From Deltaproteobacteria bacterium (lineage in GTDB: Bacteria; Desulfobacterota; Dissulfuribacteria; Dissulfuribacterales; QOAL01): a stretch of 64,000 nucleotides of DNA. The notes below the pieces were generated by a model. That model was not told the origin of the DNA. It searched no databases and was given only the letters and a program-made list of their open reading frames with translations. The stretch lies in contig WGDC01000001.1 in assembly GCA_015493475.1 (NCBI GenBank), positions 12,968-76,967 of the forward strand. Reading direction: 5' to 3'. A program made the translations under genes and the position numbers. Of the stretch, positions 50,591-60,635 are shown one piece after another (position 1 is the first letter of the stretch; every line of letters starts with the position of its first letter).

Positions 50591-50810
50591 GGTTCACCCC
50601 TACACCAAAAGTATGTCTAAAAAAACAACCTCAAATTAAAGGAACTAACCTGCCCTGTGATGCAAAACAATAGCAGCCCTACAAACCAGAGGCAAAAGAT
50701 TCCTCTTTCAATGGATAACAGGTGATAAAAAAATTTGAACCTTTTTCACCCCACTGGGTACCAATAACAAAAAGGACTTGAAACAAAAAAAGAAAGGAGG
50801 AGAAAGAATT

Positions 50811-51707
50811 ATGAGAAACAAAAAGTCTTCGGTCATTATTTTAACCATCCTTTTCCTGATAGTGACCGTTACCTGTGCGGCATACGCGGGGAAAAAGGAA
50901 ATGAACATTAAACCACCCAAAACCACCTTTGACAGAAACATCCAAAACATGGTTAGGCCCCCCAGGCCAGACCTCATTGTGACAGACATTAAGGCCAAGG
51001 ACGATCCTAAGGGCTGTTTTTTGCAGGTCACCTTGAAAAACAATGGACCAGGTAAAATCCCTGAGACCTACTACCATAAACCGCCAAGGGTGGCCATCCA
51101 GATGTATAATGGCAATAATCCCTGGGGAGGAATAGTCCTTTTTGGTTTTGACCCTTATAAGAAAGTACAAAATCCCGGTGGGATGGCAACTTGGGACTGG
51201 TTTCCCGGAGCCCAGAACCTGAGACTGCATCCAGGCTATTACACCATCAAGGTGGTGGCAGATAGTAACCACGAACTTGCAGAGGCGAATGAAAACAATA
51301 ATTCCCTGGCGAGAAAGGTCTCATGCGGTTGCAATGTCAGGCTACCAAAACCAGTGATAAGATATAGCAATAGGGACTCCAAGGGCAGGGTCTATATTCC
51401 TGTTGTAAACTGGGCAAGCTTCCCAAATGAACTCTTTCAGCCTGCTCCATATCTGCCGCCTTGTGGACTGAACAAGAACTCCTCAAGGACCTGGGTGAAC
51501 ATCTATGATGCGCAGACCAACCAGCGGCTTTATGGTTTCTGTGCCCTAGGCCATAGCAAGAATCTACAGGGTATTTGGTTCATGCCCCCTTCCAACGCCA
51601 AAGTAAAGGCCGTTTACGTCGAGATTAAAGACAGGGCCTGCGGCCGTAGTCAACGCTCAAACGTGGTAAATATATCCAAGTCCATGGGCATGGTAAAAAT
51701 ACGCTAA
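50811..51707 (+). CDS. secreted protein with CARDB-like domain
   Basis: AGGAGG RBS then ATG at 50811, followed by a signal peptide. PDLIVTDIKA...VTLKNNGPGKIP...GYYTIKVVADSNHELAEANENNNSL is the CARDB pattern. The C-terminal half is Cys-containing and unassigned. Confidence 0.6.
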   Translation: MRNKKSSVIILTILFLIVTVTCAAYAGKKEMNIKPPKTTFDRNIQNMVRPPRPDLIVTDIKAKDDPKGCFLQVTLKNNGPGKIPETYYHKPPRVAIQMYNGNNPWGGIVLFGFDPYKKVQNPGGMATWDWFPGAQNLRLHPGYYTIKVVADSNHELAEANENNNSLARKVSCGCNVRLPKPVIRYSNRDSKGRVYIPVVNWASFPNELFQPAPYLPPCGLNKNSSRTWVNIYDAQTNQRLYGFCALGHSKNLQGIWFMPPSNAKVKAVYVEIKDRACGRSQRSNVVNISKSMGMVKIR

Positions 51708-51842: not shown

Positions 51843-51896
51843 CAGAATCTGTACATGAATCATTATTCACAAAATAGAAGAAAGGAGGAGCGAGAA

Positions 51897-52265
51897 ATGC
51901 ACACCACCAAGGTGTTGTCAGTACTGTTTGCGCTGCTTTTCGGCTTGGCTGTAGCTGGTCTCGCAGCGGCAGGGGAGGGTCCGGAGGTTATAACGCTAAA
52001 GGCCAAGAAGGGAGACATCACTTTCCCGCATCACAAGCACCAAAAGATTACAAAGTGCGGTGAATGTCACCATGGACCAAACCATTCCCCATACAAGCCA
52101 GGTATGAAGATCCAGACCTGCGACAAGTGCCACAACAAGGACTTCCCCAACAAGAAGCTTAACAGCGTTATGAAGGCCCTGCACAAAAATTGCCGCGGCT
52201 GCCACAAAAAGCACAAGGCAGAGGGTGCACCAACAAAGTGCAGCGGCTGCCACAAAAAGAAATAA
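51897..52265 (+). CDS. periplasmic tetrahaem cytochrome c3-family protein
   Basis: AGGAGG RBS and a signal peptide. Four CxxCH (CGECH, CDKCH, CRGCH, CSGCH). ITFPHHKH distal-His motif. Lys-rich, 122 aa. Confidence 0.9.
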   Translation: MHTTKVLSVLFALLFGLAVAGLAAAGEGPEVITLKAKKGDITFPHHKHQKITKCGECHHGPNHSPYKPGMKIQTCDKCHNKDFPNKKLNSVMKALHKNCRGCHKKHKAEGAPTKCSGCHKKK

Positions 52266-52748
52266 CAAGGCAAAAAAACACAAGGAGGCAGGGCGTGCGC
52301 TCTCAAGGCAGGCCAGTTCCCCTATTTGCTTGGAACAAATTACTTTCAGAATCCTGATGCTGATCCCGCTCAAAATACCAGCCTTGGCATATTCCGTCTT
52401 TCAACAACAGCCCTTCTCCTTTTACGGGAAGAAAACACACAATCCAAACACAAGGAGTACTTGCAGCCACGGGAGAGGAGACTGGCCATCTGCGGGACAT
52501 GAAGTAAAAAAGGTTACTCACTTTTCTGTTGCAATTTATTCGTCTTTGTATTATGTAGGGACCTCAAATTTTGATCCGTAGCATATTTTCCCGGCCCATG
52601 CTGTCACCGCGGTGCTGACAGAGGAGGGTTCAATGTTCATTTAAGCCCGGAATGGCTCACCTGACGAGTTAAAACCGGGCGAGGGATGATAGTACGCTTT
52701 TTTCTTCTTTATGTCACAAACTACGAAAAAACAGGGAGAGCATGTTTC

Positions 52749-53459
52749 ATGAAGGTCACTAAAATGGTGTTCTTGGTCCTGGGTATGGTGGCGTCAGCCG
52801 CTCTTTTGGCTAATGGTATCGGACAGGCAAAATCCGAACAGGCAGCGGAGGCATCTCGGAAATGTGTAATCCGCAAGCAGCCGCCGAAGGAGGTCATTTG
52901 GGACAAGCCAAACAAGGCCGTTTTTAATCATGCCTACCATGTAGATGAGGTGGGCCTTGAATGCACCGACTGTCATAACCGCCTCTTTACCAAAAAAATA
53001 GGAGCCGCCTTAGGCAGAAAGGACTTCAACATGGACTCTTTCGCTAAGGGGAAATACTGCGGAGCGTGCCATAACGGCGAGGAGGCATTTAATGCCCAAA
53101 CCGAGTGCGATGCCTGCCACTTCGCGCCCAAAACGAGAATTGTGTTCACCAAACCGGTCAAGGCCGTGGTCTTTGAACACAAGATCCACGTGGGCAAGGC
53201 CAAGATAAAGTGCGAGACCTGCCATAAGAAGGTCTTTATCATGAGAAAAGCTGTCTTTGCCCACCTTAAGCCCGTGGAAACCGGAAGCATAGAGCTGAAG
53301 GACAGATACCTTGAAAAGCTGCACAAGAGGTTTTGTGGAACGTGCCATGACTCCCACAGGGCCTTTGGTTTTGCCACAAGGTGTACTGTCTGTCATATCG
53401 GGGTCAAGGGGTACACGCTTCTCAACAAGGAGGGCAAGCTCCCGGAAGACCATCAATAG
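52749..53459 (+). CDS. hexahaem cytochrome c built from two trihaem (c7-type-like) modules
   Basis: Signal/anchor MVFLVLGMVASAALLA. Two repeated blocks: VFNHAYHV..CTDCH..CGACH..CDACH and VFEHKIHV..CETCH..CGTCH..CTVCH. Confidence 0.85.
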   Translation: MKVTKMVFLVLGMVASAALLANGIGQAKSEQAAEASRKCVIRKQPPKEVIWDKPNKAVFNHAYHVDEVGLECTDCHNRLFTKKIGAALGRKDFNMDSFAKGKYCGACHNGEEAFNAQTECDACHFAPKTRIVFTKPVKAVVFEHKIHVGKAKIKCETCHKKVFIMRKAVFAHLKPVETGSIELKDRYLEKLHKRFCGTCHDSHRAFGFATRCTVCHIGVKGYTLLNKEGKLPEDHQ

Positions 53460-53543
53460 TTAAGAGCGAGAAGCCGGTTCTCAGCCATAAGGTAAGGAAA
53501 TGATTCCATAACACTAACATAAGTAACGGGAGAGGAAATACCT

Positions 53544-54851
53544 ATGAGCGAAGTGGAAATAAGCATTTCGGAAAAATGGGGTTACAACGGCCTTGCGGCC
53601 ATAAAAGAAGCCAGCACGGCCTACAAGATGGCCATGGGGTTTTTCGCGCTGCTGTTCTTGGTAGGCCTAGCCTTCGGCCTTCACGGGTTTTTCGTTGGCT
53701 ACAGGCATGTTTACGGGGTTACGCGGGAGATAGCGTGGGGACTCCTCATCTCCACATACATCTTTTGTGTCGTTACCTCCACGGGTCTTTGCATAGTGTC
53801 ATCGTTTGGCCACGTCTTTGGCAACGTGGCATTCATGCCCATTGCAAAAAGGGCGGTATTCATGTCCATAGTGTTTCTTGTCGGGGGATTCTGCATCATA
53901 TTCTTTGACCTGGAAAACCCCTTCAGACTGTTTATATGGAACGTGGTTTCACCGAACCTGCGCTCTAACATGTGGTGGATGGGAACCCTGTACGGTGCCT
54001 ACATGGTATTCATGATGCTGGAGTACTACTGCCTGCTCAACCAGAACCACTCGGTATCGAGAATAATGGGCTTCTTGGGCCTCGCCGTTGGTATAGCGGC
54101 GCACAGCAACCTCGGGGGCATCTTTGGCATGCTGCACGGCAGGCCATTCTGGTATGGTCCCTACCTTCCCATCTATTTCATATTTTCCGCTGCAATGTCA
54201 GGAGGCTGCGCCATTCTCTTCTTCACCACCCTCGGGGCAAGATTCAACCCGGAAGTAATGAACGAAACCATGCAGCGGGCGGTAAAGGCCATCACCCTTC
54301 TCACCATCTACTTTATTGTGGTTATCATGTTTTTCACCCTTTGGAAGATTATCACTGGACTCGTGTCAGAGGGAAAGGCACCGGTCATCGAATCCTTTCT
54401 CTATGGCAAATACGCGGTCAACTTCTGGTTCTTCGAGGTCTTTCTCGGGATGATCCTGCCCCTTGCCCTCTTAATCATTTCAAAGGGCAGGAAATACAAC
54501 CTAATAATGTGGGTTACCGGCATCCAGATGATAGGAATCTTCTTCATGCGCTATGACATCGTGATACCTGGCCAGATGGTTCCTGTATACCACTCCCTCG
54601 GGGTAGTGGAGGCCTCCCATCTGCTGAGTTATACGCCGTCGTGGCACGAGATAATGATATCCATCTACGGGGTATCCTTTGTGGCCTTGTTATACCTGGC
54701 CGGAGAAAGGTTGTTTAACAGCCACCAGCTCCAAAAACACGAAATCGTTCCAGAAGGGGCGTACGTGTGCCCAGGTTGTGGCGCTATCCACTATATGAAG
54801 GAGGGCGAGACGATAGAAGAGGCCATGAAACGTCACCACGGCGGTTGGTAA
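53544..54851 (+). CDS. NrfD/PsrC/DsrP-family polytopic quinone-interacting membrane subunit
   Basis: 435 aa, about 10 TM. Its position between the cytochrome c and FeS subunits supports the call. It has a C-terminal soluble tail with CPGCG. Confidence 0.8.
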   Translation: MSEVEISISEKWGYNGLAAIKEASTAYKMAMGFFALLFLVGLAFGLHGFFVGYRHVYGVTREIAWGLLISTYIFCVVTSTGLCIVSSFGHVFGNVAFMPIAKRAVFMSIVFLVGGFCIIFFDLENPFRLFIWNVVSPNLRSNMWWMGTLYGAYMVFMMLEYYCLLNQNHSVSRIMGFLGLAVGIAAHSNLGGIFGMLHGRPFWYGPYLPIYFIFSAAMSGGCAILFFTTLGARFNPEVMNETMQRAVKAITLLTIYFIVVIMFFTLWKIITGLVSEGKAPVIESFLYGKYAVNFWFFEVFLGMILPLALLIISKGRKYNLIMWVTGIQMIGIFFMRYDIVIPGQMVPVYHSLGVVEASHLLSYTPSWHEIMISIYGVSFVALLYLAGERLFNSHQLQKHEIVPEGAYVCPGCGAIHYMKEGETIEEAMKRHHGGW

Positions 54852-54922
54852 GAACTTGGCGCCTATTGACACAGACAAATCATGTTAGAGGATACCTTTG
54901 AACTTTCAGGAGGCATTTGGAT

Positions 54923-55744
54923 ATGCGGATTCACGGAATAAAATTCGATGATACGAAAAACGAGGGCACGGGATCGGTTACCAAGATGGAAAGGAGAAAA
55001 TTCCTTAAAATGGGCTTTGCCATAGCAGGCGTCTTTGCTGGAGGCAAAATACTTGGCCTGACCTCCATCGTGGGCTCGGCAAGGGCCTCTGACGGCATCG
55101 AGGTGGAGGCCTACCCTTACAGCCCCCATTACAGCATGGTGGTGCGCCAGGCAATATGCATAGACTGCGAGCGTTGCGTGGATGCCTGCAAGAAGACCAA
55201 CCATGTACCGGATTACGGTTACAGGACGCGCATACTCACGAAAAAATACGAGGGCAAGTGGGACAAGGCCGTGGAGTTTATCCCGGTCCTGTGCAACCAT
55301 TGCAACAATCCCCCCTGCGTCAGGGGATGTCCCACAAAGGCCACCTACAAGGACCCCATAACAGGTATCGTACGAATGAACAGCAAGAAGTGCATTGGAT
55401 GCAAGACATGCATACTTGCCTGCCCCTATGACGCCAGGTACTTCTGTGAAGAAAAGCGTGCGATAGACAAGTGTGATTTCTGCTGGGACGAGAGACTGTC
55501 AAAGGGAGAGAAGCTCACTGCCTGTGCCGCTGCCTGTCCCACAGGGGCAAGGACCTTCGGCAATATCGCGGACCCTGATGACATAGTGTACAAGCTAGTC
55601 CACCAGGCCGAGGAGGTGGTGTGGGTCCTGCGCCCGGAAGATAACACCAAGCCCAATGTATTCTACATGAAGGGGACCATCGGATCGGTGGAAAGGATAC
55701 TCAAGGGTACCAAGTACCGATACTTTGACCCCACCAAGATCTGA
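54923..55744 (+). CDS. Tat-exported 4x[4Fe-4S] ferredoxin subunit (NrfC/DsrO/HybA/PsrB-like)
   Basis: Twin-arginine signal ERRKFLKMGFAIAGVFAG. Four Cys clusters (CIDCERCVDAC, CNHCNNPPCVRGCP, CIGCKTCILACP, CDFC...CAAACP). Alternative start at 54986. Confidence 0.9.
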   Translation: MRIHGIKFDDTKNEGTGSVTKMERRKFLKMGFAIAGVFAGGKILGLTSIVGSARASDGIEVEAYPYSPHYSMVVRQAICIDCERCVDACKKTNHVPDYGYRTRILTKKYEGKWDKAVEFIPVLCNHCNNPPCVRGCPTKATYKDPITGIVRMNSKKCIGCKTCILACPYDARYFCEEKRAIDKCDFCWDERLSKGEKLTACAAACPTGARTFGNIADPDDIVYKLVHQAEEVVWVLRPEDNTKPNVFYMKGTIGSVERILKGTKYRYFDPTKI

Positions 55745-56123: not shown

Positions 56124-56152
56124 TTGACATATTTGCGCTAATTCGTTATCAA
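56124..56152 (+). promoter_or_regulatory. candidate sigma70-type promoter of the 19-haem cytochrome operon
   Basis: TTGACA (56124-56129), 17 nt spacer, TATCAA (56147-56152), within a markedly AT-rich stretch (56040-56200). Confidence 0.4.
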
Positions 56153-56228
56153 ATTCACAATGAATTATCATTCATTTTTCACCATGACCTAACTTCTTGC
56201 TTAAACTGCCGGGTGGGAGGAGGCCATA

Positions 56229-58238
56229 TTGCAGTGGCCATTTCTTGGATCATTATTGAAAAGGATAAGCGACATGAAAAGAGATGCATGGAAAGGGAAA
56301 GGGTTTCTAAAAGGACTCTTCTTGATTTTGCTCCTCGGGCTGACCATAGATAGCCACAACGCGCTCGCCATGACCAACGAGGAATGCCTCGAATGTCACA
56401 GTGACGAAGGAATCACTCGGGAGGCGGATGACAGCTCGGTTTACGTAAACCCTGATGTCTTCGCCAAGTCGGTACATGGGGGAGAAGATTGCATGTCATG
56501 CCACACGGACGCAAAGGGTGAGGATGAGCATCCACCGCACCTAAAGAAGGTACAATGTTCCATGTGCCATGAGGACATAGCCAAAACATTTGATGGGATC
56601 ATTCACGGCAAGGCGCATGGGGACAAGAAGCAGACTGCCCCAAGTTGCAAGAGCTGCCACGGAACCCATGATATCCTTCCCCCGGATGATCCAGCCTCAA
56701 AGGTATACATACTAAACATACCGGCCACGTGCAGCAGGTGCCACTGGAAGGAAAAGGCCGGCGGGGGAAAGGGTACACTTCCCAAAAACGCCATGAACAT
56801 CCACGGCAAGGCAATAGAGGGAGGGATCACGGTTGCTGCGGTTTGTACCACGTGCCACGGATCCCACGATGTAGTCGCCTACACAAACCCCGCTTCTCCG
56901 GTAAGCTATAAAAAACTGAAGAAAACCTGCACGAGGTGCCACGCAGGCCTTCCTGCCATCCATAAAAATGTCATAAAGCCTTCCATATGGGTGAAGGACC
57001 CAGCCAAGATTCCCCTTTGCATCCAGTGCCACCTGCCTCACGGAAAGAGGAAGTTAAAGTACCCCCAGGTCTTCACGGATGACTACTGCCTAAAATGTCA
57101 CAGCAACCCGAACCTTATAAGGCCGGACAGGAAAGGAGGGATTGACAGCCTTTACGTAGATACGGATGAATACGACGAATTTGCCGGGACGATGCACAAG
57201 AAAAAGGGCCTCACCTGCGTCATGTGTCATCCCAAGATGGACAGGGAAGAAAACCCCGTGTGCAAGAACGCGGGGCCAGTGGACTGCTCCACGTGTCACG
57301 CTGATGTCTTCAATGACTACCTGCACAGTGTACACGGCATAAAACGTTCCGGCGAACTCGATCCCAACGCACCTTCTTGCGTGGATTGTCACGGTAAACA
57401 TGCCATCCTGGCAAAGGACAACCCGGACTCCCTAATAAATCCCATAAACATCCCGAGACTTTGCGCTTCCTGCCATGCCAAAGGGGAAAAGGCATCCATA
57501 AGGCGCGGAGAAGGCGTGGACGTGGTCTCTACATACCTGAAGAGCGTTCACGGAGACGGGTTGGAAAACGGCGGGCTGGTGGTTTCTGCCTCCTGCGTGG
57601 ATTGTCACGGCGGCCACAAAATCCTCCCCTCTTCCAACCCCAAGTCAACCGTGAACAAGGGCAACATCCGCCAAACCTGCGAAAAATGCCACTACGGCGT
57701 GGGAATAAAACTGGCCCAATCGGTCCACAATCCTCCTTTCGGTGCGGACAAGTCCCTTTTCCCTGCCTGTACCGACTGCCACACGTCGCATGAGATTTTG
57801 AGAGGCACGGATCCAAACTACAGGAGGCATGAAATCCAGGCATGCGCAAAGTGCCATCCAGAGGAGGCGGAAACCTACCTCGAAAGCTACCACGGAAAGG
57901 CTGCGTTTCTCGTGGGTGGCGAAAGAGTTGCCCATTGTTCAGACTGCCACGGCAGCCACGACATTCTTGCGGTGACAGACCCACTGTCCACCCTTTCCGG
58001 TGAGAATGCGGTAAAGACATGCCGAAAGTGCCATCCAAAGGCAAACCTGAGCTTTACCACGTACAGGACCCACGCCTCGCACTGGGACAAGGAAAAGAAC
58101 CCGGACATGTACTACTCCTTCATCGCCATGACCTCCCTGCTGCTTGGAACCTTCGCGATTTTCGGCATTCACACCATCCTCTGGATACCGCGTTCGTTGA
58201 AGGAGAGATTGAAAATGAAAAAAGACTCCGATGCATAA
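56229..58238 (+). CDS. membrane-anchored multihaem cytochrome c with 19 CxxCH motifs
   Basis: I counted 19 CxxCH motifs. N-terminal signal (LFLILLLGLTIDSHNALA). C-terminal TM helix (YYSFIAMTSLLLGTFAIFGIHTILWIP). Six repeats of CxxCH-[GT]-x-H-x-[IV] followed by a Pro/Ser-rich turn. GGAGG plus TTG at 56229, or ATG at 56274. Confidence 0.9.
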   Translation: MQWPFLGSLLKRISDMKRDAWKGKGFLKGLFLILLLGLTIDSHNALAMTNEECLECHSDEGITREADDSSVYVNPDVFAKSVHGGEDCMSCHTDAKGEDEHPPHLKKVQCSMCHEDIAKTFDGIIHGKAHGDKKQTAPSCKSCHGTHDILPPDDPASKVYILNIPATCSRCHWKEKAGGGKGTLPKNAMNIHGKAIEGGITVAAVCTTCHGSHDVVAYTNPASPVSYKKLKKTCTRCHAGLPAIHKNVIKPSIWVKDPAKIPLCIQCHLPHGKRKLKYPQVFTDDYCLKCHSNPNLIRPDRKGGIDSLYVDTDEYDEFAGTMHKKKGLTCVMCHPKMDREENPVCKNAGPVDCSTCHADVFNDYLHSVHGIKRSGELDPNAPSCVDCHGKHAILAKDNPDSLINPINIPRLCASCHAKGEKASIRRGEGVDVVSTYLKSVHGDGLENGGLVVSASCVDCHGGHKILPSSNPKSTVNKGNIRQTCEKCHYGVGIKLAQSVHNPPFGADKSLFPACTDCHTSHEILRGTDPNYRRHEIQACAKCHPEEAETYLESYHGKAAFLVGGERVAHCSDCHGSHDILAVTDPLSTLSGENAVKTCRKCHPKANLSFTTYRTHASHWDKEKNPDMYYSFIAMTSLLLGTFAIFGIHTILWIPRSLKERLKMKKDSDA

Positions 58239-58267
58239 CACCGGAAGCGTATAAAAGGGAGGTTTAA

Positions 58268-59113
58268 ATGAACAGCGGCGAAACTATATACGTTCAGAGG
58301 TTTAACGCCTTTGCCAGGATACTTCACTTTTTCGTTATAATAAGTTTCCTCACCCTGGCCCTCACGGGAATGTGCCTCAAGTTCTCCACGGAGTCATGGG
58401 CACAATGGACAGCTTCCATGTTTGGCAGTTTCAGGGTACTGGGCGTGCTTCACCGCATTGCCGCGGTAATAACCTTTGGATACTTTTTCGGCCATTTCAT
58501 CCTGGTCTACCATAACTACCGGAAAAGCGGGAAGCCCCTTTTGAGATTCATAATCGACGAAAACACCGGAATGGTTCCAAACCTGAGGGACCTCCAGGAG
58601 ATAGGTCAGACCATCAAGTGGTTTCTCGGCAAGGGGCCGCGGCCTGCATACGGACGCTGGACTTACTGGGAGAAGTTTGACTACCTCGCAGTGTTCTGGG
58701 GTGTTGCGGTCATCGGATTCACAGGACTATGCCTGTGGTTCCCGGTATTTGCCACTCGCTATCTTCCAGGATGGTTTCTCAACATCGCCACCATTGTTCA
58801 CAGTGACGAGGCGCTGCTTGCTACAGGCTTCATCTTCACCATACATTTCTACAATACCCACCTGAGGCCAGAAAAATTCCCCCTTGACAAGGTGATTTTT
58901 ACCGGGGTGGTAACCCTAGATGAACTGAAGCATGAAAGGCCCCGCGAATACGAGACCCTTGTAAGGGAAGGACGCTTAGACGAGGTTATCACGGATCCGC
59001 CTCCGAGGTGGCTAGTGATATTCGCATACGTCTTTGGGCTCTCTGCGGTTACCATAGGCCTGTCCCTCATATTCACCATATTTTTCACCCTGCTGAAATA
59101 CGGGTTGAGATAA
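58268..59113 (+). CDS. b-type cytochrome membrane subunit (FdnI/PhsC/Ni-hydrogenase cytochrome b family-like)
   Basis: GGAGG RBS. RFNAFARILHFFVIISF...VLHRIAAVITFGYFFGHF...TIVHSDEALLATGFIFTIHFYNTH shows conserved His residues on TM helices. 29 nt after the cytochrome c stop. Confidence 0.8.
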   Translation: MNSGETIYVQRFNAFARILHFFVIISFLTLALTGMCLKFSTESWAQWTASMFGSFRVLGVLHRIAAVITFGYFFGHFILVYHNYRKSGKPLLRFIIDENTGMVPNLRDLQEIGQTIKWFLGKGPRPAYGRWTYWEKFDYLAVFWGVAVIGFTGLCLWFPVFATRYLPGWFLNIATIVHSDEALLATGFIFTIHFYNTHLRPEKFPLDKVIFTGVVTLDELKHERPREYETLVREGRLDEVITDPPPRWLVIFAYVFGLSAVTIGLSLIFTIFFTLLKYGLR

Positions 59114-59209
59114 AGCAAAACGGGATCGCACCTTGAAAATGGTATACCTCAGACAACTTGACAACCCCCAGCGCCGGGAATACAGCGTCCTAACAAATGG
59201 TAACAGCCA

Positions 59210-59521
59210 ATGAACAGTAACGTGCCCTTAAAAAGAAGACTTGCCATATACGCCACGGAAATATTGATGGTGCTCCTTTTGATCTTAATGTTACGAAATT
59301 TCGTAAGCGCCATCTACTATAGCGTAAAGACCAGCACCGCAGAGATACAACGGTATTACGAGAAAGGGATAACAGACGCCACTGAGTTGAGCAAGAAAGG
59401 CAACATTCTTGAACCGGTACGGGATATCGCGAATCCCCTTCTGCTAAGGATGTACGAAAAGGGATTCCGGGACGGCATAGACTCGACAAGAAACGAAAGG
59501 AGTAAACATGAGAAGGGGTAA
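59210..59521 (+). CDS. small single-TM hypothetical protein
   Basis: 103 aa with one TM (IYATEILMVLLLILML). Its 3' end overlaps the next gene's start by 14 nt, which suggests translational coupling. Confidence 0.4.
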   Translation: MNSNVPLKRRLAIYATEILMVLLLILMLRNFVSAIYYSVKTSTAEIQRYYEKGITDATELSKKGNILEPVRDIANPLLLRMYEKGFRDGIDSTRNERSKHEKG

Positions 59522-60377
59522 TCTAATAATAGGGCTGATGATTTCTTTTCTCTCGGGTGCTTATCTGTCATCCGGAATCTCGGTGGCATCAACCATCCTC
59601 GACATACCTGCCATAGGCGCGGATAAGCTTAAACACGAGCTCTACGAAGGGCCTCCCATGGTGTGCGCCAACGCGCTAAGCCCCATTGAATTCCAGGACC
59701 TGACCATTAGGGGATCAGTGAACATCCCGTCGAGCAGGGTAAAGGACAATCCAAACCTCCCGGAGGACAAGGGAGAGCTCCTGGTCTTTTTCTGCAAGGG
59801 CCTCCCTACGTGACTTAAAAGCCACGAAGCCGCCAGGAAGGCGGTTAAACTTGGCTTTACCAACGTAAAGGTCTATTCCAAGGGCCTCCCGGACTGGATA
59901 CGGAGAAGATACCCCGTGATCCGTATGGTCAACTATCCCAAGGTTCGCATTCCCCTTATCCATCCTTCGCAGGTCATGAAGAAACTCAACGAGCTTACTA
60001 TCCTCGACATAGGTGGCGAGGAGCTCAATAAGATAGGGCAGTTCAAGAGGGGCAATGTTATTCACATCCCCATGGACGATCTCGAAGACGACTACAACAA
60101 GCTACCCAAGGACAGGACCCTGGTGATCACCGACGTAATGGGAAAGCAGGAACAGATCGCCGGGAGGTTCCTGTGGATGAAAGGATACAGAAAACTCTTG
60201 GCCATGAAGGGGGGTGGCCGCGCCTGGTTTGATACCGTGCGGGTACTGAAAAGAATCCAGACAGAGGAAGCTCCTATCGGAACAAAAAAGTTTAAAGAAA
60301 CGGAAAAACAGGTGAAAGAAAAGATAAAGGCCGAGCCGAAAGAGAAGAAGAAGAAGAACAGGTCAGCACCATGGTAA
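59508..60377 (+). CDS. periplasmic tandem rhodanese-domain protein, probable selenoprotein (in-frame UGA at 59811-59813 read as Sec)
   Basis: AGGAG RBS and a signal peptide. ORFs 59508-59813 and 59916-60377 share one frame, and there is no stop in 59814-59915. The TGA splits a single rhodanese fold inside the active-site loop: LLVFFCKGLPT-[UGA]-LKSHEAARKAVKLGFTNVKVYSKGLPDWIRRRYPV. A SECIS-like hairpin follows. The second rhodanese-like domain lacks Cys, and the tail is Lys-rich. Confidence 0.7.
59818..59858 (+). promoter_or_regulatory. putative bacterial SECIS element
   Basis: Lower stem AAAGCC (59818-23) / GGCTTT (59853-58). Internal loop. Upper stem AGCCGCC (59828-34) / GGCGGTT (59840-46, including one G-U pair). 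Apical loop AGGAA (59835-39), with GG about 23 nt after the UGA. Confidence 0.6.
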
Positions 60378-60468
60378 GGCTTCAAGGTCATAGACTTAGT
60401 AACCCGCACTGATTGCCCGAAAAATGATACGGGCCATGGGGAAAACTCCAGGCTGTTATAGTCAATCG

Positions 60469-60523
60469 CGCTTCATGGGGCTTAATCTAGAGACCCTACC
60501 CGCCCCATGAAGCGTTTACTTTT
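60469..60523 (+). terminator. hairpin plus T-rich tract downstream of the rhodanese gene
   Basis: CGCTTCATGGGG (60469-60480) is the perfect reverse complement of CCCCATGAAGCG (60503-60514). It is followed by TTTACTTTTAA. The 22-nt loop is large for a canonical terminator. Confidence 0.5.
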
Positions 60524-60635
60524 AATGCTTGATGCCGTGCCATCTTTCCATTCCTTCGGGCAGGGCAGACAACGGCCATGTGCCCTGCTTCACGGGCCTA
60601 CCCAAACAGACAGATAAAAAACTCGAAGCAAGTAG

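Follow-up and report, generated by a model that had tools for sequence, protein, structure and literature searches.

Is a rhodanese that is encoded directly behind a multihaem cytochrome complex a working part of it, and if so, which reaction does it serve? The question is raised by four co-directional, tightly spaced genes (56229-60377, + strand) in a 64,000-nucleotide stretch of DNA from a Deltaproteobacteria bacterium (GenBank assembly GCA_015493475.1, contig WGDC01000001.1). This stretch is called the window, and all positions are counted from its first letter. The four genes encode a 19-haem cytochrome c (c19), a cytochrome b, a 103-aa small protein and an exported rhodanese with an in-frame UGA codon, predicted to specify selenocysteine (Sec). 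Judged from the conservation of the locus, the novel element is the fixed attachment of a Sec- or Cys-containing rhodanese to the c19/b pair in one clade of Desulfobulbaceae. We read the unit as a respiratory module of the CbcL/CbcBA type with an added sulfur-handling end piece, in which a menaquinol-linked Cys-Sec rhodanese would act on sulfane sulfur; the probability of this reading is put at roughly 0.4. The unit consists of the following features:

56229..58238, + strand: c19, 669 aa, with signal sequence, 19 CxxCH motifs and a C-terminal transmembrane (TM) anchor (open reading frame (ORF), motif count, TM prediction)
58268..59113, + strand: dihaem cytochrome b of the FdnI/HydC type, 281 aa, about five TM helices (Pfam PF01292, TIGR01583)
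59210..59521, + strand: 103-aa bitopic membrane protein with one TM helix (ORF, TM prediction)
59508..60377, + strand: predicted exported tandem rhodanese selenoprotein (ORF with in-frame TGA, Pfam)
59811..59813, + strand: predicted UGA selenocysteine codon (TGA column conserved, Cys in other orthologues)
59818..59858, + strand: stem-loop resembling a bacterial selenocysteine insertion sequence (bSECIS), with an AGGAA apical loop, from 5 nt after the UGA (fold)

The rhodanese and its attachment to the cytochrome pair

The product of the fourth gene has a signal-peptide-like N-terminus and matches the Pfam rhodanese family (PF00581, E=7.4e-12) in two stretches; its gene overlaps that of the small protein by 14 nt. 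In domain 1 Cys96 is invariant and stands in the loop FFCKGLPT-U-LKS (C-x5-U). In domain 2 the position of the catalytic Cys is taken by Asp (VITDVMGKQ), thus only domain 1 can be active. The overlapping, signal-bearing tandem rhodanese described in the initial annotation was confirmed, with the qualification that the active-site Cys is present in domain 1 only. The loop signature of the family is C-K-G-P-x-[U/C]-x-K-S, to which the window protein adds one residue, and the Cys and the Sec (or second Cys) of the loop are four to five residues apart. The second redox residue occupies the position of the canonical loop-closing Arg/Thr, and the window rhodanese does not conform to the C-R-x-G-x-[RT] loop of canonical thiosulfate sulfurtransferases.

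A single-sequence search for relatives of the rhodanese gave 8, and a profile search was used thereafter. The window protein scored far below the cut-offs of two NCBIfam models, rhodanese_LYCAU (NF041203; 48.8 vs 115 bits) and TsoB (NF045694; 45.7 vs 805 bits). For an AlphaFold2 model of a Cys-form orthologue (pLDDT 91.9), which has the alpha/beta fold of rhodaneses, the top Foldseek matches were generic tandem rhodaneses with at most 26% identity. A terminal Lys/Glu-rich tail of about 40 residues (60255-60374; …KEKIKAEPKEKKKKNRSAPW) is shared by the window rhodanese and its nearest relatives (P0121, P0122) and absent from the other orthologues.

An in-frame TGA occupies the same alignment column in L002, L006, L011 and about ten metagenome loci, and the reading frame is conserved on both sides of it. 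Cys is found at this column in L010, L091, L101-L106 and in proteins P0123-P0128; the loops of Cys forms among orthologues and paralogues read FFCKGPVCVKS, FFCKGVICVKS and FYCKGPKCGKS. The SECIS-like hairpin, formed by the 40 nt that come after the UGA, has a folding energy of -24.7 kcal/mol (z = -3.0). Four divergent Sec forms retain its apical stem, a compensatory change from C:G to U:A included; the Cys form L010 has lost it. The conserved TGA, the Cys in other orthologues and the stem-loop that is absent from the Cys form argue that the UGA encodes selenocysteine and that the rhodanese is a true selenoprotein, which bears out the tentative "(seleno)rhodanese" of the earlier description. 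None of selA, selB, selC and selD was found within the 64-kb window, nor was a tRNA found there.

The small protein and the rhodanese follow only those c19 homologues that are at least 48% identical to the window c19, and the named ones are affiliated with Desulfobulbaceae. Among genome loci the rhodanese orthologue is linked to c19/b in the window (L001), L002/3, L006, L010, L011 and L091; in a Desulfobulbus metagenome-assembled genome (MAG) the unit lies on one contig (locus tags DSY57_02870 to DSY57_02890). In the converse test the rhodanese profile was run against metagenome contigs. It recovered 16 loci with rhodaneses that we call Group I (at least 50% identity, motif FFCK[GS]..[U/C]). 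Wherever enough upstream DNA was available, the rhodanese was preceded by cytochrome b (15/15) and by c19 (14/14). The Desulfobulbaceae clade that carries c19/b with a Group I rhodanese comprises more than 20 loci. The four genes are co-conserved and the rhodanese is no chance neighbour, as had been proposed, since c19/b precede every orthologue with enough upstream DNA. Our literature search yielded no report of the four-gene combination, or of any link between a CbcL-type complex and a rhodanese.

The 103-aa single-TM protein is present as first described. It has no match in Pfam or NCBIfam, and 36 representative relatives were found among 1.84 billion proteins. An alignment shows a conserved motif, NPLLxKxYxKGFRDGxD. 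The protein is conserved in L002, L006, L010, L011, L091 and 14 of the 16 metagenome loci. In the window, L002 and L091, which are divergent loci, its gene runs 14 nt into that of the rhodanese, and in most members it is predicted to be translationally coupled to the rhodanese. The small protein is clade-specific and probably serves as a tether or docking subunit for the rhodanese.

In a sister clade of Thermodesulfobacteriota (L004, L007; c19 43-45% identical) a Band-7/SPFH gene lies directly upstream of c19, and a 480-aa multihaem cytochrome of the NrfH/NapC type is encoded downstream, where the rhodanese sits in the other clade.

Exported tandem rhodaneses of a second kind (Group II; 36-47% identity, motif FYC[KL]GPKC.KS) are encoded in L008, L092 and L107-L118. 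They include a Sec form (L117) and a protein of the cultured Thiovibrio sp. JS02 (L092, GCA_053485635.1), in which three rhodanese genes lie in a row upstream. A Group II rhodanese gene is always followed by a gene for a methyl-accepting chemotaxis protein, usually by one for MauE, a DoxX-like membrane protein, and never by cytochrome genes. The two groups are separate sets of orthologues whose contexts do not overlap, and both pair a rhodanese with a membrane protein of possibly redox-related kind. The rhodanese, chemoreceptor and MauE of Group II may form a chemosensory module for sulfur compounds. In L006 (1-5971) and L091 (18051-20801), genes for CheA/W/B/R and response regulators lie less than 10 kb from the c19-rhodanese unit; this could be coincidence or residual synteny with the chemoreceptor-linked paralogues.

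The cytochrome pair and its surroundings

The c19 gene starts with TTG at 56229, preceded by GGGAGGAGG; an alternative ATG lies at 56274. The protein has a hydrophobic N-terminal segment, exactly 19 CxxCH motifs, six copies of CxxCH[GT]xHx[IV]..P and a C-terminal TM helix (residues 629-654) with an invariant H633, so that the length, haem count, repeats, signal and anchor given in the initial annotation were each verified in the sequence. All 19 CxxCH motifs are invariant among 28 c19 homologues, and so are 19 further His residues, which indicates that the haems are probably all bis-His ligated and that c19 acts as a wire. Given these 19 candidates for distal ligands, a catalytic haem without bis-His ligation is unlikely. 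There is one extra Cys (C330), which occurs family-wide and is not clade-specific, and no internal UGA. By its sequence c19 looks like a pure wire without a clade-specific extra ligand.

The haem spacing of c19 reveals an internal duplication: the unit 37,23,30,28,45,28,30,23 is present twice, followed by 30,28. The C-terminal spacing unit equals the last four spacings of the 9-haem CbcL, which suggests that a CbcL-like module gave rise to c19 by tandem duplication. L028, L031, L063 and L070 encode variants that have 21-23 haems. A PDB sequence search with c19 gave no useful match, and a literature search on 19-haem cytochromes found nothing relevant.

The cytochrome b gene begins 29 nt after the end of c19. 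Its product matches Ni_hydr_CYTB (PF01292, E=2.4e-11), weakly the formate dehydrogenase gamma subunit (TIGR01583), and FdnI in the PDB (1kqf_C, E=2.8e-4); these agree with the polytopic FdnI/PhsC-type cytochrome b proposed earlier. His20, 62, 178, 193 and 198 are invariant in an alignment across phyla. From these matches the protein is predicted to be the quinone-interacting subunit, a dihaem cytochrome of the FdnI/HydC type.

The c/b pair had been taken as an undescribed module. This part of the proposal did not survive: by haem spacing and architecture the pair falls in the CbcL/MtrH/MtoC family, catalogued in 2018 by Zhong and Shi (PMC6295460), an outcome that the initial annotation had itself named as refuting. 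Members of that family have 416-1034 aa, 3-23 CX2CH motifs, six TM helices and conserved TM His residues, and occur in 15 phyla (PMC6295460). Their proposed role is that of quinol oxidases/quinone reductases, which move electrons between menaquinone and the periplasm. Table S2 of the same paper lists many fused 19-haem proteins of 913-951 aa, none of them characterised, and the haem spacing of c19 is nearly identical to that of these entries. As in the family, c19 has an N-terminal periplasmic domain with multiple CX2CH motifs (19), followed by a TM helix and an FdnI/HydC-like cytochrome b, with about six TM helices in total and TM His residues. The c and b parts are not on one polypeptide as in CbcL; they are encoded by two genes 29 nt apart, as in CbcBA. 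The likeness to the founders GSU0274, MtrH and MtoC is indirect and runs via the haem spacing of 19-haem entries retrieved with those queries, and via the last four CbcL spacings, which return in c19 as its repeat unit. Placed by haem spacing and architecture, c19/b is best described as a split form in the 19-haem branch of CbcL/MtrH/MtoC.

The search with c19 gave more than 3,000 relatives. The best 120 were all full length, with 37-91% identity, and about half of these were fusions of 920-1060 aa with PF01292 at the C-terminus. Confirmed c19/b loci are present in at least 590 species-representative genomes, among them Acidobacteriota, Ignavibacteria/Melioribacter, Bacteroidota, KSB1, Calditrichota, Zixibacteria, Gemmatimonadota, Woeseiaceae, Nitrospiraceae and others. 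Eighty of these loci were retained for neighbour analysis; for high-GC loci the neighbour statistics were taken from tblastn and not from ORF clusters. Cytochrome b is directly downstream of c19 or fused to it in 78 of the 80 (49-73% identity). The occurrence of c19/b in many genomes without a rhodanese points to quinol-to-periplasm electron transfer, not sulfur chemistry, as the generic role of the pair. With at least 590 species in more than 15 phyla, the 19-haem CbcL branch is among the most widespread quinol-cytochrome modules, yet wholly uncharacterised.

In other phyla the neighbours of c19/b include an ImcH-like cytochrome of about 500 aa (NrfH/NapC type), Rieske and cytochrome b6-like subunits, a 16-haem c/b fusion paralogue, NrfCD modules, and a porin-like protein with a 14-haem cytochrome. 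In Ignavibacteria/Melioribacter (L016-L018, L020, L021, L026, L031) the pair lies within a conserved cluster of about 20 kb. The cluster begins with genes for NrfC, NrfD, a 13-haem cytochrome, a histidine kinase and response regulators, followed by c19 and cytochrome b. After these come the 16-haem c/b fusion paralogue, a 4-haem cytochrome, a 422-aa porin-like protein, and 14-haem and 7-haem cytochromes. From its gene content this cluster looks like a complete route that leads from the inner membrane to the outer one.

The flanks of the unit in the window contain a promoter-like site, an inverted repeat and a second quinone module:

51855..55744, + strand: adjoining second quinone module (Pfam, NCBIfam, haem counts), consisting of the next four features
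51855-52265, + strand: tetrahaem c3-like protein (Pfam/NCBIfam, haem count)
52686-53459, + strand: hexahaem c7-type protein (Pfam/NCBIfam, haem count)
53544-54851, + strand: NrfD (Pfam/NCBIfam)
54917-55744, + strand: Tat-exported NrfC/DsrO-like 4Fe-4S protein (Pfam/NCBIfam)
56124..56152, + strand: promoter-like TTGACA (56124-56129), 17 nt, TATCAA (56147-56152) (read directly)
60469..60526, + strand: perfect inverted repeat of 13 bp that encloses a 20-nt loop and precedes a T-rich tract (read directly)

The AT-rich intergenic leader before c19 is 484 bp long and contains the TTGACA-17-TATCAA site that had been noted as promoter-like. The site is present but has no statistical weight: promoter-like matches across the region are no commoner than in shuffled sequence, and a consensus promoter scan left the site unflagged, since its -10 hexamer ends in A. 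The hairpin and T-rich tract said to close the unit are also present, with a stem of 13 bp (60469-60481 paired with 60502-60514) instead of the 12 bp given earlier. A terminator scan limited to loops of up to 8 nt did not report the hairpin, the 20-nt loop being too long, and its matches were no commoner than in shuffled sequence; the repeat is a possible terminator that is statistically not distinctive. An Rfam scan of 55.7-60.7 kb gave a chance IRES match only, and found no riboswitch or known RNA in the leader.

In the window, L011, L094, L101, L102 and L116, c19 is immediately preceded by NrfD-NrfC genes, which are divergently oriented in L002 and L091; a similar NrfC-NrfD-13-haem set adjoins c19/b in Ignavibacteria and Zixibacteria. 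The gene next to the cytochrome island on its upstream side (50778-51707) encodes an exported protein of 309 aa that matches a CARDB domain weakly. The surrounding genes in the 35-51 kb part have housekeeping functions and gave no further information (acetyl-CoA synthetase-like/GNAT, deacetylase, RND pump, radical SAM, Dus).

A proposed menaquinol-linked rhodanese reaction and its rivals

If the rhodanese is indeed the sulfur-handling end piece of a CbcL/CbcBA-type module, the dihaem cytochrome b would oxidise menaquinol and electrons would travel down the 19-haem chain; the small bitopic protein would tether the rhodanese to the cytochrome complex. Cys96 would be converted to a persulfide by sulfane sulfur that comes from polysulfide, S0 or thiosulfate. 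Attack by Sec on this persulfide would release sulfide and form a selenenylsulfide, which the haem wire would re-reduce at the expense of menaquinol. Through the transmembrane dihaem b, the membrane potential may assist this low-potential reduction, as in PhsC. The reverse direction would be equally compatible, with sulfide or sulfane oxidation delivering electrons to the quinone pool or to extracellular acceptors, and would be in keeping with Desulfobulbaceae that disproportionate sulfur or oxidise sulfide. In the related Desulfurivibrio alkaliphilus, expression of a CbcL homologue rises when sulfide is oxidised with coupling to iron reduction. The net activity would be that of a molybdenum-free, selenium-dependent periplasmic sulfane-sulfur oxidoreductase. 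The earlier proposal of a quinol:multihaem-wire:sulfur-carrier system thus stands as regards composition, family and linkage, while the sulfur-redox function is one that we infer.

It is unlikely that the operon is instead a CbcL-type menaquinol oxidase for extracellular electron transfer (EET) to Fe(III), Mn(IV) or partner cells, with the rhodanese as peripheral housekeeping. The rhodanese would then scavenge or detoxify sulfide, polysulfide or cyanide, by which the haems or the mineral acceptor would be poisoned or sulfidated, and would exchange no electrons with the wire. Such a role would fit the EET-type clusters in which c19/b is found in other phyla (porin-like, 14-haem, ImcH-like NrfH/NapC and Rieske/cytochrome b proteins) and the ties of the CbcL family to EET in Geobacter and Desulfurivibrio (PMC6295460; bioRxiv ImcH paper). 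The absolute gene linkage, the translational coupling and the investment in Sec are, however, hard to square with a loose helper, and the window cluster has no outer-membrane conduit genes. The use of Sec also argues for a catalytic redox role over simple binding. We consider it improbable that the module reduces oxyanions of selenium or tellurium, or other chalcogens, with the rhodanese carrying Se as perselenide. Rhodaneses can bind selenium, and the rhodanese-like ExtH and ExtI have been linked to selenite/tellurite reduction in Geobacter; later work has shown the ext cluster to code for a polysulfide reductase that S0 respiration requires. The host lineage and the sampled habitats are sulfur-dominated, and nothing specific to selenium oxyanions was found in the window.

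The rhodanese could also be a periplasmic sensor or redox reporter, whose Cys-Sec state would report sulfide, polysulfide or the quinone pool and gate the cytochrome complex. The chemotaxis protein and MauE next to Group II rhodaneses and the chemotaxis clusters within 10 kb in L006 and L091 speak for such a role, which is nonetheless improbable: the four-gene unit contains no signalling domain or regulator, and the contexts of Groups I and II do not overlap. Still less probable is a function of the rhodanese and the small protein in maturation or repair, i.e. in reducing the 38 haem-binding Cys residues of the apocytochrome or repairing sulfur adducts. The redox-active, dithiol-type motif would suit it, and in E. 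coli the periplasmic rhodanese PspE can feed thiol-redox pathways; yet hundreds of c19/b operons mature without a rhodanese, and the known apocytochrome reductants have a thioredoxin fold. That the TGA is a real stop and the rhodanese split or decaying is hardly credible. Automatic gene callers do give two ORFs in every record, but the TGA stands at one column in many divergent orthologues with the downstream frame conserved and Cys elsewhere, and the hairpin persists, with a compensatory change, in Sec forms but not in the Cys form.

Several observations weigh against a menaquinol-linked sulfur reaction of the rhodanese. The c19/b pair occurs without any rhodanese in hundreds of other genomes (about 600). 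The chemoreceptor context of Group II suggests sensing over catalysis. We know of no proven precedent for electron transfer from bis-His c-haems to a selenenylsulfide, and MccSep uses a Cys-ligated haem, whereas c19 has no clade-specific haem ligand. L098 and L103 have no small-protein gene, from which it follows that the small protein is dispensable in one sublineage. All members of the four-gene unit come from MAGs or metagenomes, and many Group I loci from a few related metagenome projects, so that independent observations are fewer than loci. L098 and L103 are Sec forms (FFCKSPG-U-LKS) in which the rhodanese gene begins about 80 nt after that of cytochrome b.

A stronger claim, possible but doubtful, is that the Cys-Sec rhodanese itself, as terminal catalyst, constitutes a new class of respiratory sulfur enzyme, wired directly to menaquinone by the 19-haem chain. 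If this is true, polysulfide, S0 or thiosulfate would be turned over without molybdenum or sirohaem, and the reaction could be the missing periplasmic step of sulfur disproportionation in Desulfobulbaceae or, alternatively, of sulfide oxidation coupled to EET. Little of the enzymology by which Desulfobulbales respire or disproportionate S0 has been worked out so far. MccSep, described in 2026, was the first haem/selenium polysulfide reductase; the strictly conserved c19/b and Sec-rhodanese operon would be a second solution without molybdenum, independent of MccSep. The operon would also provide a gene marker for sulfur-linked electron transfer in uncultured Desulfobulbaceae of hydrothermal systems and sediments, and a natural test bed for c-type haem wires that drive selenenylsulfide chemistry.

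Relation to known systems

With CbcL (GSU0274), MtrH and MtoC the c19/b pair shares a periplasmic multihaem c part, one TM helix, an FdnI/HydC-like dihaem b and TM His residues. CbcBA (GSU0593-0594) is split in the same way, its c subunit carrying a TM helix at the C-terminus (bioRxiv ImcH paper). The haem number differs: 19 in c19, 9 in CbcL and 7 in CbcA. Of the described CbcL/MtrH/MtoC members, none has a rhodanese or selenoprotein link like that of the window unit.

The initial annotation had found no fit to Hmc, Tmc, Qrc, Nhc, Ohc or DsrMKJOP. We came to the same result, as none of these pairs a dihaem b with an anchored multihaem c, and NCBIfam matches to models of these types fell in the upstream NrfCD/c3 module only, far below cut-off. 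Its statement that there is no molybdopterin or sirohaem catalytic subunit was likewise upheld by Pfam and NCBIfam scans of the cluster.

Wolinella Sud/PsrABC is a precedent for a periplasmic rhodanese-type sulfur carrier that works with a quinol-linked membrane complex, and in Salmonella PhsC an FdnI-type dihaem b uses the proton-motive force to drive low-potential sulfur reduction. A Psr/Phs system with Sud was rejected for the window, where no molybdopterin ORF of the PsrA/PhsA kind is found across 35-64 kb. The c19/b pair also lacks a PsrB/PhsB partner, and its rhodanese has a Cys-Sec pair where Sud-type proteins have a single Cys. In the DoxX-SseA complex of Mycobacterium a rhodanese is partnered with a membrane protein. 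DoxX/MauE-rhodanese pairs, including those of Group II, combine the rhodanese with a membrane partner of the quinone- or thiol-redox type, whereas the partner in the window is a haem b/c complex.

Rhodanese-type selenoproteins are an already catalogued class, and the window protein has a non-canonical loop. Five forms are listed in a 2026 review (PMC13188914), in which form 1 has the signature U-x-x-S; the U-L-K-S of the window matches it, a likeness to form 1 (WP_010941598.1) by signature only. TsoB is a rhodanese/DsbD-fusion selenoprotein with the loop U-x4-U, and its fusion partner is an electron-delivering membrane module (PMC13188914). Its U-x4-U occupies the same loop position as the C-x4-[C/U] of the window rhodanese family. 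The combination of an active and an inactive domain in tandem, and the obligatory cytochrome context, are undescribed for the catalogued forms.

In Geobacter the extHIJKLMNOPQS cluster encodes MccSep/ExtKL, a polysulfide reductase essential for S0 respiration (PMC13510729, PMC5877670, PMC6148476). The cluster is found in Desulfobacterota. Like the window, it combines a rhodanese-like protein, a small protein of about 100 aa (104 aa), Sec, multihaem cytochromes and a quinol-oxidising b complex. The parts are arranged differently. The protein that carries Sec in Geobacter is a soluble cytochrome with five haems, which include a Cys-ligated one; in the window it is the rhodanese. The protein c19, with 19 haems and no internal UGA, is thus not MccSep/ExtKL. 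ExtH is an outer-membrane lipoprotein rhodanese without Sec, the b-cytochrome is of the Rieske/bc type and a porin is present, whereas in the window unit an FdnI-type b bears the anchored 19-haem wire and a porin is absent. By analogy of composition, the Geobacter Ext/MccSep cluster appears to be the closest analogue of the c19/b-rhodanese unit.

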